64,000 nt of DNA from a plasmid. The translations under genes were made by a program, and so were the position numbers. How positions within the stretch are numbered: the first letter of the stretch is position 1; the number at the start of each line of letters is the position of its first letter. Where the stretch lies: NCBI RefSeq assembly GCF_054482525.1, contig NZ_JBTHVG010000003.1; one strand, written 5' to 3'. This document shows, in pieces, positions 16,865-54,969 of this stretch. A model generated the notes under the pieces. The model searched no databases and was not told the origin of the DNA. It saw only the letters and a program-made list of their open reading frames with translations.

Positions 16865-17287
16865 CTATCGCCCTCCCCCATTAAAATCATAAAGTCGGTA
16901 AAGATCGCCCATCGTGATGGAATTGGGCTTATTAATGATTAGATACTGTAACTGTTCTTTATGTTGAGTACTGGCGGCTGCATTCATAAGCACTTCCAGG
17001 TAGAACTTGTAGCCTATGCTTCGCTCTGAATACATATACTGGAACTGCATCAGTAAAATGCCTGACATAACATACAACAGCAGCAGACTGAGTAACACAG
17101 TGCTATCAGGCTGTTCCAGTGCCATACTGACATACCCTGAACCCAGAATGCACAGAAGCCAACCCGTCATTAGAGCAGGCACCCTACGACTCAGACGTTC
17201 ATAACAACGTTTTATTACGGGATCCCGGAGATACTTTTTGTCAGGTATCCCCGTTGCCCTGATGACGAAGTTACTGAGTATCGACAT
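16865..17287 (-). CDS. Small membrane protein, hypothetical
   Basis: Hydrophobic segments; 140 aa. Confidence 0.4.
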   Translation of the reverse strand: MSILSNFVIRATGIPDKKYLRDPVIKRCYERLSRRVPALMTGWLLCILGSGYVSMALEQPDSTVLLSLLLLYVMSGILLMQFQYMYSERSIGYKFYLEVLMNAAASTQHKEQLQYLIINKPNSITMGDLYRLYDFNGGGR

Positions 17288-47381: not shown

Positions 47382-47836
47382 CTGCTGACCGGCTTTCCCA
47401 GAGAGCAGCGATGTGTCGGGTTCTTTTTCTCATTTTATCGTTTTCATCGGGCCCATCCGGGCGTATAAGAGACCGATTTGGCATGTTTAGGAAACGTACT
47501 GGCGTAATTAAAAGCTGAGGTTGGATTTGGAATAAAAGGATGCTTTTCCCGTTTGTCGGGTCTTTCGCCACCGCTGCACGATGATTCTGTCAGGCATTCT
47601 GCGCCCTCCCAGGCTGCACATCTGGAAACAAGCGTTGGGATGTTCCCTTCCCCTGCTCACCGTAGAAAGATCGGCAAGTCCCGACGGTCGTTCCGTACGA
47701 GCCGGGTCCAAATAATGAATAAATAAAACGCCGCTTCAATTGTATTGACAATAGAAGTCAGGAGGATCATAGTGTCATTCATGGTGCGGCTTTCACACCA
47801 CCGCCCCGGCGGTACCGGGCAGAACTGGAGTACCTC

Positions 47837-48877: not shown

Positions 48878-49480
48878 ATGATGAATAAAGAACAACTAAT
48901 CGACAAACTGGAACGCGTGGTATGTGGTCAGTACTCCTACGAAATGCAGGAGCTTGCGTATTCGGCCCTCTGCTGCATTAAAGGCACCCCGGACGACTGC
49001 GCTAAGTTCCCTGTTACGCGTCCGCTGCCTGACACCTTAGTGGACGTATGGGACGAAATCGGGCAATACCTTGGCACAGGCAAAGCCATTGAAACTCGCA
49101 GTTGCGGCGTTTCGCTTCTGCTTCATGGACACTGCTACGATTCAAATCATGTGCTTTACTGGCGCAATGCTGGCGCACTTCCAGCAGCTTGCGATACGCC
49201 ACTGGCTGGTGGGTCTCGCAAACTGTTCACCTGCTCAGCCTGTGGAGTGGACGGTCTGGATGAACCACCTGAAACCAGTTGCCACTGCTGCACAGAGGGG
49301 GCCCACTGGGTTGAGAGCAGGCTCTTCACCTCCGGGCAGGCAGACCCTGAAGAATTTAGACCCGTGGCGGTCGTGAAAGAGTGTGCAGGCTCAACGCCGG
49401 ATGATCGGCTTATCTGGAGTGTGATTGAACAGCTCAACGGCGAACTGGCGGAAGGCGATAAACTATTTAAGCGACGCTGA
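48878..49480 (+). CDS. Cysteine-rich hypothetical protein
   Basis: 200 aa with many Cys in CxxC-like spacing (CGQ..., ALCC, CSAC, CHCC). Confidence 0.45.
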   Translation: MMNKEQLIDKLERVVCGQYSYEMQELAYSALCCIKGTPDDCAKFPVTRPLPDTLVDVWDEIGQYLGTGKAIETRSCGVSLLLHGHCYDSNHVLYWRNAGALPAACDTPLAGGSRKLFTCSACGVDGLDEPPETSCHCCTEGAHWVESRLFTSGQADPEEFRPVAVVKECAGSTPDDRLIWSVIEQLNGELAEGDKLFKRR

Positions 49481-50454: not shown

Positions 50455-50496
50455 AAGAAAAAAGGGTTCCTCCGCTTTAGAGGAACCCTTTCAAAA
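50455..50496. terminator. Rho-independent (bidirectional) terminator
   Basis: agggttcctc-cgctttag-aggaaccct hairpin flanked by A-run and T-run. Confidence 0.55.
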
Positions 50497-50545
50497 GGTG
50501 CCGATGGCATACTAATCCACACCCTGAAAAGAGGGGGGTTGCCCC

Positions 50546-51884
50546 CATAAGCGCTAACTTAAGGGTTGTGGTATTACGCCTGATATGATTTAACGTGCCG
50601 ATGAATTACTCTCACGATAACTGGTCAGCAATTCTGGCCCATATTGGTAAGCCCGAAGAACTGGATACTTCGGCACGTAATGCCGGGGCTCTAACCCGCC
50701 GCCGCGAAATTCGTGATGCTGCAACTCTGCTACGTCTGGGGCTGGCTTACGGCCCCGGGGGGATGTCATTACGTGAAGTCACTGCATGGGCTCAGCTCCA
50801 TGACGTTGCAACATTATCTGACGTGGCTCTCCTGAAGCGGCTGCGGAATGCCGCCGACTGGTTTGGCATACTTGCCGCACAAACACTTGCTGTACGCGCC
50901 GCAGTTACGGGTTGTACAAGCGGAAAGAGATTGCGTCTTGTCGATGGAACAGCAATCAGTGCGCCCGGGGGCGGCAGCGCTGAATGGCGACTACATATGG
51001 GATATGATCCTCATACCTGTCAGTTCACTGATTTTGAGCTAACCGACAGCAGAGACGCTGAACGGCTGGACCGATTTGCGCAAACGGCAGACGAGATACG
51101 CATTGCTGACCGGGGATTCGGTTCGCGTCCCGAATGTATCCGCTCACTTGCTTTTGGAGAAGCTGATTATATCGTCCGGGTTCACTGGCGAGGATTGCGC
51201 TGGTTAACTGCAGAAGGAATGCGCTTTGACATGATGGGTTTTCTGCGCGGGCTGGATTGCGGTAAGAACGGTGAAACCACTGTAATGATAGGCAATTCAG
51301 GTAATAAAAAAGCCGGAGCTCCCTTTCCGGCACGTCTCATTGCCGTATCACTTCCTCCCGAAAAAGCATTAATCAGTAAAACCCGACTGCTCAGCGAGAA
51401 TCGTCGAAAAGGACGAGTAGTTCAGGCGGAAACGCTGGAAGCAGCGGGCCATGTGCTATTGCTAACATCATTACCGGAAGATGAATATTCAGCAGAGCAA
51501 GTGGCTGATTGTTACCGTCTGCGATGGCAAATTGAACTGGCTTTTAAGCGGCTCAAAAGTTTGCTGCACCTGGATGCTTTGCGTGCAAAGGAACCTGAAC
51601 TCGCGAAAGCGTGGATATTTGCTAATCTACTCGCCGCATTTTTAATTGACGACATAATCCAGCCATCGCTGGATTTCCCCCCCAGAAGTGCCGGATCCGA
51701 AAAGAAGAACTAACTCGTTGTGGAGAATAACAAAAATGGTCATCTGGAGCTTACAGGTGGCCATTCGTGGGACAGTATCCCTGACAGCCTACAAAACGCA
51801 ATTGAAGAACGCGAGGCATCGTCTTAACGAGGCACCGAGGCGTCGCATTCTTCAGATGGTTCAACCCTTAAGTTAGCGCTTATG
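50546..51884 (+). mobile_element. IS186 (IS4 family) with perfect 23-bp terminal IRs and 11-bp target site duplication GGGGTTGCCCC
   Basis: IRs cataagcgctaacttaagggttg / caacccttaagttagcgcttatg; TSD at 50535-50545 and 51885-51895; boundaries +/-1 bp. Confidence 0.9.
50595..51713 (+). CDS. IS186 transposase (IS4 family DDE)
   Basis: ...MNYSHDNWSAILAHIGKPEELD... and ...DCYRLRWQIELAFKRLKS... signature. Confidence 0.9.
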   Translation: MPMNYSHDNWSAILAHIGKPEELDTSARNAGALTRRREIRDAATLLRLGLAYGPGGMSLREVTAWAQLHDVATLSDVALLKRLRNAADWFGILAAQTLAVRAAVTGCTSGKRLRLVDGTAISAPGGGSAEWRLHMGYDPHTCQFTDFELTDSRDAERLDRFAQTADEIRIADRGFGSRPECIRSLAFGEADYIVRVHWRGLRWLTAEGMRFDMMGFLRGLDCGKNGETTVMIGNSGNKKAGAPFPARLIAVSLPPEKALISKTRLLSENRRKGRVVQAETLEAAGHVLLLTSLPEDEYSAEQVADCYRLRWQIELAFKRLKSLLHLDALRAKEPELAKAWIFANLLAAFLIDDIIQPSLDFPPRSAGSEKKN

Positions 51885-51907
51885 GGGGTTGCCCCCCTCT
51901 TTGTCAG

Positions 51908-52066
51908 CTACTTACCGGATTCGTAGGCCAGGATAGCAAATACCTCCCTTGTTCCGTCTTTCATCCGCAACTCGCAAAGCGAGTTTCGTGTGAGCCAGGT
52001 GAATATCAACAGCGTTAAACAAACTATTAATATGCACAAAACAATGGGTTGGTTCGGCATTTTCAT
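51908..52066 (-). CDS. hok: Hok/Gef-family type I toxin (52 aa)
   Basis: [52 protein letters not shown] matches the Hok family; ORF-track N-terminal extension is a mok-like upstream frame. Confidence 0.8.
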
Positions 52067-52164
52067 GGCCTTCTTCTCCTTGCATTTAAGCAGGCAAGAG
52101 GCTACGCTGTGTGTGACTAGCATACAGGGGCCTCGGGTTGTACTGACCCCAGAAAGTTGGACAG

Positions 52165-53016
52165 TTAAACACGAGGCATATAGGTCTGATTCCGATATTC
52201 AATTGGAGTCAGACCTTTTAATTTCAGGCTAATTCTTCTGCTGTTGTAGTATTCAATATATTCCGTAACAGCATCCTTCAGCTCGCTTATATTACTGAAC
52301 TCATCAAGATAAAAACACTCCGACTTTAAGGTTCCAAAGAAACACTCCACCACAGCATTATCCAGACAATTGCCTTTTCTGGACATGCTTTGTTTAATAC
52401 CATGTTCTTTAAGGATATTTTGATATCTTCTCATACGATACTGCCATCCCTGGTCAGAGTGCAGAACAGGATGCTCGTGAGGATTAAGCTTTTTGAATGC
52501 CTGATCGAGCATATTCTCGACCATGTTCATCACTGGTCTTTCCGAAAGGCTGTAAGAAATAACTTCGTTGTTGAAGAGATCTATTACTGGAGACAAATAC
52601 AGCTTGCGCCCATTGACTGCAAATTCAGTAACATCGGTAACCCACTTCTCGTTTGGCCGCGTAGCCTTGAAATCTCTTTGGAGAACATTGGGGGCGGTTT
52701 GCCCTACCTCTCCTCTGTAAGAGCGGTATCGCTTGACCTTAATCGCTGCCTTCAGTGAGAGGATTCCCATCAGGCGCTGAACAGCTTTATGGTTAATCTG
52801 TTTCCCTTCTCGATGAAGAGACAGCGTTACCCTACGGTATCCGTATCGGCCTCTATTCTCATGATAAATCTCACCAATACGCTTTTTAACGTCCGCATAC
52901 TTGTCAGGCTTGCTGAGAGCCTTTAGATGGTAATAAAACGTACTGCGCGGTATCTCCGCAGCCCTGAGAAGCTCATCAAGAGGATAAAACTGCCTTAGCT
53001 CGTTGAGTACTTTCAC
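52165..53016 (-). CDS. IS150 transposase OrfB (DDE domain)
   Basis: 283 aa; IS3-family integrase core. Confidence 0.9.
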
Positions 53017-53534
53017 TTTTTCGTGGGATGAGCTAAGGCTTTCAGCTTTTTTAGATACACAAGCCGCGTTTCAAGAAATCGAACTTGCCTTTCAAGATCC
53101 TCAATGCGTCGGTCTTTTGACAGCTCCAATGCTGATGCCGCTTTTTCTGGATCAACTGATATTGCAATGTTTCTTTTGGTGCCAATCTTGAGCGCGCGTA
53201 AACCAGCTTCTCCGCGCTCTTCATAAACCTTCAGCCACCTGGCTACAGAACCACTACCAGCAAGCATAAAGTGAGCAGCAGCCTGATTAAGGGACATGTG
53301 CTGCTCGATCACCGCTTTCACGACCTTAATACGCAACTCAGGATCAGCACTAACACCTTTAGGTTTGGGAATTAAACCTTTTTCTCCATGTTTTTCATAG
53401 AGGGCAACCCATGTCCTGACCTGGGTTCGGGGGACACCAAAACGTGCCGAGATGATCCTGTAACCATCATCAGTAGTGAAGTAGTGATTCACGACTTCAA
53501 GGCGCTTTTCAAAAGGGTATTTTGGCTTTGACAT
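53013..53534 (-). CDS. IS150 transposase OrfA (HTH)
   Basis: 173 aa; overlaps orfB as expected for a frameshift-fusion arrangement. Confidence 0.9.
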   Translation of the reverse strand: MSKPKYPFEKRLEVVNHYFTTDDGYRIISARFGVPRTQVRTWVALYEKHGEKGLIPKPKGVSADPELRIKVVKAVIEQHMSLNQAAAHFMLAGSGSVARWLKVYEERGEAGLRALKIGTKRNIAISVDPEKAASALELSKDRRIEDLERQVRFLETRLVYLKKLKALAHPTKK

Positions 53535-53866
53535 ATCAGGGGCTATTCCATTTCATCGTCCAACAAAATGGGTGCAGTACAGGTTAATTGAAAAATTACT
53601 CGGGGCTTTCTGCTTTTACCACAGTCAAACAGTGTTACCGCTGGCTGGGGCAAAAGCCTCCAGCACCAGCGTCATTATATCACTCTGCCCTGATCAGCCA
53701 AACACCCTGCCTGCATAAATCATTGATTTATAATTTATTTGACATGAGTCACTTCCGGTTGTCGGAGACAGTCTTTTTACACTAAAGAAAAGGGTAACGG
53801 GCAGCTGCTTGGTCGGAACATACAGTGCAGTTCCTGCCCGTTTAATTTCCGGATGCAATGGTAGGA

Positions 53867-54472
53867 TCAGGAGGCACTGGTTCCGTTGATTAGGGAAAGC
53901 TTATGTGCCTGAATACGGCTGTATTCGAGATGGGATGGAATATTACAGATGCGCTCCAGTCGATCATGCAGCCTCGTGTAGGTCAGTCGATGAATACCGG
54001 ACATTTCATCAAGTAGCCAGCGCTTGATGTAAGGGTTACAGGAAAGCCGGGCAAGATCGTCGTCATCCACTTCGTCAAAGAACCAGTACTGCTCCATCGG
54101 GACTACCTGAAATATCCACGGCCGGGGATAGTCCCCTGTGACAACCAAAAACCATGCGAGAAAGCATAGACACAGCTCAACGATCATCAGCATCGAAAAT
54201 TGCGAATAACTTAGACCAGGCACATAGGGTGAACTATCCGCAACATACCCCCTGAACAATTCCGCCACAAGGTAGCCCAATAGCGACAAGGCCAGCATCA
54301 GGGTCAGGATTAATCCCCCATTAAACGCTACCGAAGCCTTTTGAACCCGATCAGGTGCTGTCCGGCTGCGATAGTTGGTCACTACTCTTTCTACAAGTGC
54401 CCTTATGGCAGCCTGTTCTTTACTGACATCAGCTCCGGAAAAACCGGACGGGCTTTTATTTAATTCAGTCAT
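53867..54472 (-). CDS. Membrane protein, hypothetical
   Basis: 201 aa with hydrophobic helices. Confidence 0.4.
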   Translation of the reverse strand: MTELNKSPSGFSGADVSKEQAAIRALVERVVTNYRSRTAPDRVQKASVAFNGGLILTLMLALSLLGYLVAELFRGYVADSSPYVPGLSYSQFSMLMIVELCLCFLAWFLVVTGDYPRPWIFQVVPMEQYWFFDEVDDDDLARLSCNPYIKRWLLDEMSGIHRLTYTRLHDRLERICNIPSHLEYSRIQAHKLSLINGTSAS

Positions 54473-54687: not shown

Positions 54688-54969
54688 TTACTCTTTTTCC
54701 TGCATAGCGGCTTTTTCAGCCCGGGTGGCCAGGCGAGCATTTCCGAAAGGTTCACGGACAAGCAGGGGCTTCTCCTTCTTCCAGCCCCTGATAGCCGTTT
54801 CTCCAAAACGACGTGGTGCATTGCCGTTCCAGCGAGCAATCACATGATTATCATGAATTTCTATAATGACAACGGGGTGGACAATGACCGTTGTAATGGT
54901 GGTATTTCCCATTTTGGTACGGGTTACAGACCAAACCTGCATCCCGGATTCCAGCTGGCTGATTTTCAT
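54688..54969 (-). CDS. Hypothetical protein
   Basis: 93-aa ORF. Confidence 0.3.
   Translation of the reverse strand: MKISQLESGMQVWSVTRTKMGNTTITTVIVHPVVIIEIHDNHVIARWNGNAPRRFGETAIRGWKKEKPLLVREPFGNARLATRAEKAAMQEKE

Follow-up and report, generated by a model that had tools for sequence, protein, structure and literature searches.

The DNA analysed here, referred to as the window, is a 64,000-nucleotide (nt) stretch of plasmid sequence (NCBI RefSeq assembly GCF_054482525.1, contig NZ_JBTHVG010000003.1) that carries a hok/sok locus, comprising a Hok-family toxin gene and its putative antisense RNA gene Sok, interrupted by two insertion sequences (ISs), IS186 on the 3′ side of hok and IS150 on the 5′ side. 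The sampled relatives of the locus are all large conjugative IncHI2 plasmids from E. coli, Salmonella, Klebsiella and related genera. Plasmids of this group are important vehicles of mcr-1, extended-spectrum β-lactamase genes and metal-resistance genes, and a 'Hok family toxin' appears in their annotations. The hok open reading frame (ORF; 52066–51908, minus strand) encodes 52 amino acids and is intact, as an earlier note made from the letters of the window had described. It matches the NF007279 model over its full length (residues 1–52 of 52) with 122.8 bits against a cutoff of 73, and Pfam PF01848 with E = 7e-18. The proximal hok leader (52067–52138, minus strand) contains the Shine–Dalgarno (SD) sequence of mok, GAGG (52134–52131), an ATG at the mok position (52123), and the hok SD sequence. 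The mok SD sequence lies 7 nt upstream of this ATG, and both align with the mok SD sequence and start of the plasmid R1 locus. This ATG shares the hok reading frame and opens a 71-amino-acid extended-Hok ORF (51908–52123, minus strand). In the IncHI2 plasmids compared, the PGAP annotation contains only a truncated Hok of 39 amino acids (120 nt).

IS186 (= IS421) occupies positions 50546–51884 (1,339 base pairs (bp), plus strand), is convergent with hok and is 100% identical to the K-12 copy IS186A. All of the features that define membership are present, namely 23-bp terminal inverted repeats (CATAAGCGCTAACTTAAGGGTTG), an IS4-type transposase (372 amino acids, 50595–51713, plus strand; NCBIfam IS4-family model NF033592, above cutoff), a target duplication in the 10–11-bp range, and a G-run/C-run target. 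The element begins 23 nt past the hok stop codon and is bracketed by an 11-bp direct repeat, GGGGTTGCCCC, with copies at 50535–50545 and 51885–51895, so that the boundaries and repeats given in the earlier note agree base for base with those found here. The GC-rich palindrome that the note had reconstructed across the insertion, GAGGGGGGTTGCCCCCCTC, is present in IS-free IncHI2 plasmids, which establishes that IS186 splits it. One part of this stem–loop, the distal half, now lies at 50531–50545 (minus strand) and contains the left copy of the duplication; the hok-proximal half lies at 51885–51903 (minus strand) and contains the right copy. The loop lies within the 11-bp duplication, and a 5-bp GGGGG/CCCCC hairpin is consequently left beside hok as a remnant; in the best fold this is all that survives of the intact 11-bp stem. 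The predicted energy is −14.7 kcal/mol for a 53-nt stretch reaching into IS186 and −24.6 kcal/mol for the intact 43-nt context, although the two stretches differ in length and content and the values are indicative only. A terminator-like hairpin within IS186, antisense to the transposase gene (51331–51312, minus strand), would stop transcripts that enter from hok.

IS150 occupies positions 52139–53581 (1,443 bp, minus strand), is oriented like hok and shares 98.8% identity with the K-12 copy. It likewise has all of its membership features: the length of 1,443 bp, TGTACTG... ends, orfA and orfB, and a 3-bp duplication (GGT; copies at 52136–52138 and 53582–53584). The orfA gene (53534–53013, minus strand) matches the N-terminal part of the IS3-family model NF033516 below its cutoff, and orfB (53016–52165, minus strand) matches the same model with 348 bits. 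The position and duplication given in the earlier note both stand, with the correction that the element lies 72 nt upstream of the hok ATG rather than 73. It is situated 4 nt upstream of the mok SD sequence and about 24 nt past the inferred start of Sok, in the 5′ arm of the Sok terminator stem. Just inside the right end of IS150 there is an inward-facing, terminator-like hairpin on the Sok strand (52182–52216, plus strand), which comprises a 15-pair stem followed by TTTTAATTT and begins and ends 44 and 78 nt inside the element; it would stop transcripts entering from the Sok promoter. The right end also contains CACGAGGCAT (52164–52179), which shares a 10-mer with the part of the R1 hok leader that surrounds the mok SD sequence. 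Inverted-repeat-like targeting through this resemblance was considered and rejected, as about one such 10-mer match is expected by chance.

An empty site was reconstructed by deleting both IS elements and one copy of each duplication. The resulting 1,105 bp match about 70 IncHI2 plasmids end to end, and among the matches listed 30 of 30 are 100% identical (for example pAPEC-O1-R). The comparison with IS-free homologues that the earlier note had suggested therefore finds the reconstructed hairpin retained in about 70 plasmids. The leader was located with the Rfam model RF01794, which is named 'sok' but here aligns in the hok sense from mRNA position +1 to the hok AUG. In pAPEC-O1-R, where no IS splits the leader, the match reaches 81.1 bits against a gathering score of 59, whereas in the window it is broken across IS150, with model positions 1 to ∼84 at 53668–53585 (46.7 bits) and ∼85 to 157 at 52138–52064 (34.4 bits). 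IS150 thus splits both the RF01794 match and the inferred Sok gene, and its placement in the leader and antisense-RNA region, as first proposed, is borne out. A scan of the whole window with Rfam at the gathering thresholds gave no match, and the locus would consequently escape automatic RNA annotation.

The anatomy of the locus was assigned by alignment with an R1-type hok/sok reference sequence, which matches IncF plasmids at 100% over 437 nt. The parts lie in the same order as in the R1-type sequence: tac, leader hairpins, the mok SD sequence and start, the hok SD sequence, Hok, TAAGTAGC, the GC hairpin, TTTTCAGG, the fold-back inhibitory element (fbi) and the terminator. A promoter scan identified the hok promoter, P_hok, at 53674–53701 (minus strand) as TTGGCT-16-TATAAT with a TG before the −10 hexamer (a match at 10 of 12 consensus positions); transcription from it would now enter IS150 at the left end. 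Downstream of it is an orphaned 5′ leader (53585–53668, minus strand), equivalent to RF01794 positions 1 to ∼84, that contains tac (53668–53657), the leader hairpins and the anti-SD/ucb arm. At the other end of the locus are fbi (CCAUCGGCACC; 50497–50507, minus strand) and the Rho-independent terminator of the original hok transcript (50460–50492, minus strand), a 14-pair stem followed by TTCTTTT that aligns with the terminator hairpin of the R1-type sequence. Folding of the reconstructed 375-nt mRNA at minimum energy pairs nt 1–8 at the 5′ end (tac) with nt 368–375 (fbi), and relative to R1 the stem contains compensatory changes (C3-G to U3-A and U7-A to G7-C). In the window tac and fbi are 3.2 kb apart with two IS elements between them.

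On the opposite strand, the putative Sok promoter (P_sok) and the first ∼24 nt of Sok are assigned by homology to 52080–52138 (plus strand), with the −35 hexamer TTGCAT at 52080–52085, the −10 hexamer TACGCT at 52103–52108, and Sok RNA at 52115–52138. The sequence TTGCAT-17-TACGCT is the positional counterpart of TTGCGC-17-TATCCT in R1, which we take to be the Sok promoter there, and its position is also homologous to that of the annotated K-12 sokC gene. A scan with a generic promoter consensus did not report P_sok. The remainder of Sok, comprising the 3′ arm of its terminator hairpin and the U-tract, is orphaned beyond IS150 (53585–53617, plus strand), as judged from folding of the reconstructed RNA. 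That RNA, like R1 Sok, consists of a 5′ tail and one long hairpin followed by UUUCUGCUUUU, which forms the U-tract.

The ancestral locus, which persists unchanged in IS-free relatives, would have functioned as follows. P_hok would direct synthesis of an mRNA of ∼375 nt in which the 5′ end (tac) is paired with the 3′ end (fbi) and the mok ribosome-binding site is sequestered within a leader hairpin, Sok would be a ∼57-nt antisense RNA over the mok start region, and the G6-N3-C6 hairpin just past the hok stop codon would, after processing, become the 3′ end that protects the translatable mRNA. By alignment, the hairpin split by IS186 is the last stem–loop of the 3′-processed (Tr) hok mRNA (R1 ∼342–359) and not the primary terminator. 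Hence the identification of the palindrome as the 3′ hairpin of the transcript, put forward in the earlier note, holds for the processed Tr-hok 3′ end but fails for the primary terminator.

Together, the two elements divide the hok/sok locus into four pieces. IS186 inserted into the loop of the Tr-hok hairpin and detached fbi and the terminator, which now lie 1.35 kb from hok beyond the element. IS150 entered the Sok terminator stem within its 5′ arm. This insertion separates P_hok, tac and the anti-SD sequence from mok and hok, and leaves P_sok with about 24 nt of Sok cut off from the Sok terminator hairpin. The toxin ORF would therefore lack a dedicated promoter, the activating 5′ element and the stabilizing 3′ end, from which we infer a non-working and essentially silent killer module. 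The integrity of the hok ORF may reflect no more than the recent date of the insertions, and it is uninformative on selection because the non-coding flanks are equally 100% identical to those of IS-free relatives. Saturation mutagenesis of the R1 hok/sok locus revealed that single substitutions that weaken the last Tr-hok stem–loop abolish toxicity, that substitutions in tac abolish translation, and that a locus without Sok is lethal only while hok is expressed (PMC9841398). Consequently, either insertion alone should disarm the toxin. By analogy with R1, the hok/sok locus in the window is probably silenced, and a killer system that has been dismantled by two ISs, and is essentially silent with both insertion sites apparently recurrent hot spots, is the likely explanation of the data as a whole.

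The distribution of the insertions was assessed by a census of ∼680 related plasmids in PLSDB, in which chimeric queries were each built so that only one configuration reaches 80% coverage. Neither IS is present in ∼70 records. IS150 alone is found in 387, with the whole hok 3′ region intact, and IS186 alone, in the orientation of the window, in 47. The arrangement in the window, with both elements, is found in about 65 records, which are complete plasmids from several genera. IS186 in the opposite orientation at the identical junction occurs in 115 records, 58 of them with IS150 and hence ∼57 without it. All six occupancy states therefore exist, each was confirmed on at least one individually inspected locus, and at least one IS is present in ∼90% of the records that carry the locus.

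IS186 reportedly inserts at the target consensus G≥4 N3-6 C≥4, which is said to come from SaiSree et al. in 2001. The hok hairpin (G6 N3 C6), as a sequence, is a perfect fit to this GC-specific target preference. The 61-kb IS-free version of the window contains only two matches to the consensus, of which the hok hairpin is the stronger; the other, GGGGATAGTCCCC (54124–54136), lies inside a 201-amino-acid ORF (53867–54472) and is unoccupied here. The affinity of IS186 for GC-rich targets has been reported (PMC3903273). A second occurrence is provided by pSJO-60984, an IncHI2 plasmid with a backbone that is only 98% identical, in which IS186 again occupies the hok hairpin. Its target duplication there is 10 bp long and the element differs by two single-nucleotide polymorphisms (SNPs), which mark it as an independent event. 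The opposite orientation of IS186 in the 115 records was also considered as proof of a second insertion but was downgraded, as the terminal inverted repeats and the palindromic target together form 41-nt inverted repeats that are 93% complementary.

At the IS150 site, three IS150 sequence types occupy a single position. In addition to the window type, pATCC43845 contains a K-12-type element at the same GGT in the same orientation, with no differences from K-12 and 17 from the window copy (element positions 14–1399), and pEC129_1 contains a mosaic with three differences from K-12 and 14 from the window type. The mosaic weakened the argument that the occurrence of two IS150 variants at this GGT proves a second insertion. 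Local SNPs were likewise of no use as a test of whether the occupancy states arose independently, as the 11-kb flanks of IS-bearing plasmids differ from the window by only 0–4 SNPs. In laboratory evolution of REL606-derived lines, three lineages were reported to have IS150 in hokC/nhaA at position 16,972, and one further lineage at 16,989 (PMC5419217). REL606 positions 16972–16974 are the GGT of GGGGCCTCGGGTT, homologous to the duplicated GGT of CAGGGGCCTCGGGT^T in the window, if the printed coordinate is, as we assumed, the first duplicated base. Further IS150 rows in the same publication (trg/mokB and insA-7/hokE) were unusable, their coordinates falling in chaB and cusA of REL606 (NC_012967.1). 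In its Table 3 the mokB and hokE rows seem to be shifted or on another coordinate system, while the hokC/nhaA rows are consistent. A large survey also placed hok/sok genes near hot spots for insertion of mobile genetic elements in E. coli and K. pneumoniae (bioRxiv 10.1101/527788). Both insertion points in the window thus appear to be recurrent hot spots and not one-off accidents.

Several points weigh against a silenced locus with two recurrently used sites. Silencing is deduced from a homologue that is only 57% identical to the window locus over the mRNA and 3′ flank end to end (263 of 462 aligned columns). IS150 is co-oriented with hok, and read-through from P_hok or from the transposase promoter could still supply mok/hok transcripts; the 5-bp G/C remnant hairpin formed by the duplicated loop remains next to hok; and the intact P_sok could yield a chimeric antisense RNA. 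With regard to recurrence, the reversed IS186 could be the product of an in-place inversion between the 41-nt inverted repeats, the IS150 variants could stem from conversion between IS copies, the local SNPs are too few to count insertion events, and the hokC/nhaA laboratory sites come from a table with other rows that mismatch the REL606 coordinates.

An alternative is that the locus is rewired rather than dead. Read-through of IS150 would generate a mok/hok mRNA, P_sok would generate a chimeric antisense RNA, and some killing or stress-toxin function would persist under antisense control. Such an antisense RNA would end at the 52182–52216 hairpin, keep the 24-nt 5′ recognition region of Sok and be fully complementary to the read-through transcript. 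In agreement with this, orfA and orfB share a strand with hok, P_hok with its 10 of 12 consensus positions is directed into IS150, and the Sok promoter hexamers, assigned by R1 homology and unconfirmed by the scan, are unchanged from those of IS-free plasmids. On the Sok strand the 15-pair stem and TTTTAATTT follow 44–78 nt into IS150, and the chimeric RNA is predicted to fold into two stable hairpins. The 387 IS150-only records would also be accommodated, in that these plasmids are viable with canonical Sok gone, but a silent hok explains their viability equally well. However, no tac is present in cis, and the R1 data then predict that mok and hok are not translated. In a model of the read-through RNA that includes IS150 positions 52139–52230, the mok SD sequence is paired with a subterminal GCCUCG of IS150, which comes from the complement of CACGAGGCAT, and stays sequestered. 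Together with the missing tac, this pairing predicts silence even with read-through. In addition, the Tr 3′ stem–loop and fbi are lost in the double-IS allele, there is no T-run on the minus strand after the IS150 terminal hairpin, and the promoter scan found no outward promoter. A rewired, functional locus is on balance improbable.

It is somewhat less probable again that the hok/sok locus of IncHI2 plasmids had no function, or no importance, even before the insertions, with other stability systems sufficing and the ISs being neutral passengers placed by target bias, so that nothing was silenced. IncHI2 plasmids do carry other stability systems, parA-parB and hipA-hipB, to which the stability of an mcr-1 IncHI2 plasmid has been credited (PMC6306219), and the target bias of IS186 by itself predicts insertion at this site. 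Furthermore, the start at the mok position shares the frame of hok, whereas that of R1 does not, although this is no defect given that K-12 mokC is annotated likewise. The IS-free allele, moreover, keeps all of the family hallmarks, including the near-consensus promoter, the 81-bit leader, the compensatory tac/fbi stem, a predicted Sok hairpin with its U-tract, and a full-length Hok. That the arrangement arose as an assembly artefact, or that IS-like sequence merely happens to lie beside a hok-like ORF, has nothing in its favour and is excluded by the perfect target duplications, the exact empty site in independent plasmids, and the occurrence of the arrangement in ∼65 independent complete plasmid records from several genera.

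Dismantling by two ISs at recurrent sites thus remains the preferred reading, and it can be extended in a more speculative direction. Two conserved RNA structures of hok/sok loci might double as sequence-specific landing pads for ISs, with IS186 targeting the G-run/C-run 3′ stem–loop and IS150 the Sok terminator stem (GGCCTCGGGTT), and the right end of IS150 may make the hit survivable. The loss of canonical Sok would then not be lethal because the GCCUCG of IS150 re-pairs with the mok SD sequence and the IS150 terminal hairpin gives P_sok a new terminator. We regard this extension as doubtful but, if true, it would mean that plasmid, chromosomal and laboratory-evolved toxin loci are systematically hit and disarmed, time and again, at identical nucleotides. 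The site-exact recurrence supports hok/sok loci as IS hot spots, and two concrete target motifs follow from it.

The 'Hok toxin' annotated on most IncHI2 resistance plasmids is probably part of a dismantled module. As the census suggests that ∼90% of the loci are interrupted, the hok module ought not to be treated as a functional addiction system in accounts of plasmid stability or in the design of anti-plasmid strategies. The six occupancy states can also be used as lineage markers.

Two further features of the region were observed. The rgi track of PLSDB attaches the label 'Brucella suis mprF, defensin resistance, identity 100%' to a 93-amino-acid hypothetical protein (54688–54969, minus strand), and does so for all of the IncHI2 relatives. 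Given the small size of the protein, this resistance call appears spurious. The window also has two private SNPs, an A at 47795, where the four IncHI2 relatives compared have G, and a T at 49411, where the five compared have C.

No paper describing an IncHI2 hok with IS186 was found in the literature library that was searched. The presence of 'hok-sok' in IncHI2-carrying isolates has been reported by polymerase chain reaction, mostly in isolates that also contain IncF replicons. The IncF (R1) locus and that of the window share the order of parts, the 5′–3′ fold-back pairing, the predicted Sok architecture, a 52-amino-acid Hok and, by homology, a putative Sok promoter inside the mok/hok start region. 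Apart from their ∼57% nucleotide identity over the 462-column alignment, they differ in the mok frame, which is +1 relative to hok in R1 and in frame with hok in the window, and in the Tr hairpin. That of R1, GGCGGGC-GCAG-GCCCGCC, contains no run of four or more G residues, whereas the G6-N3-C6 hairpin of the window fits the IS186 target. The absence of such a run may be why the IncF hok has been spared.

The closest parallels are on the E. coli K-12 chromosome, and the earlier note's statement that ISs lie beside chromosomal hok loci was verified there, with IS186 at hokC and hokE and IS150 at hokA. At hokC and hokE, IS186 lies 19 and 18 bp past the hok stop codon, respectively, inside the loop of the equivalent GC hairpin, and fbi and the terminator are cut off as they are in the window. 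The split hokC hairpin is GGCGGGGA-GTGA-TCCCCGCC, the IS186 copy is 100% identical to that of the window, and the reconstructed hokC mRNA has the same predicted tac/fbi fold-back. These loci differ from that of the window in being chromosomal, in the 10-bp duplication at hokC, in the reversed orientation of IS186 relative to hok at hokE, and in the lack of IS150 at either. At hokA, IS150 (3720633–3722075) lies 32 bp upstream of the gene and splits mokA and sokA, but it is reversed in orientation and lacks a target duplication (flanks GTA and AAC). The hokA leader also seems to be ∼40 nt short compared with that of hokC, which suggests an added rearrangement, an IS-adjacent deletion. Both mokC and mokA are annotated with the same stop codon as hokC and hokA, in the manner of the in-frame mok of the window. 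The IS150 insertions in laboratory lines of E. coli B likewise lie in a hok/sok leader, as in the window, but are chromosomal. The K-12 loci are described as inactivated by insertion elements, in two later papers that cite Pedersen & Gerdes 1999 (PMC12214031, PMC7232551). It is thus already known that IS hits disarm hok loci, both in K-12 hokA, hokC and hokE and in laboratory evolution. What the present analysis adds is the census of six occupancy states and the convergence of insertion sites, at the level of single nucleotides, across plasmid, chromosome and laboratory evolution.

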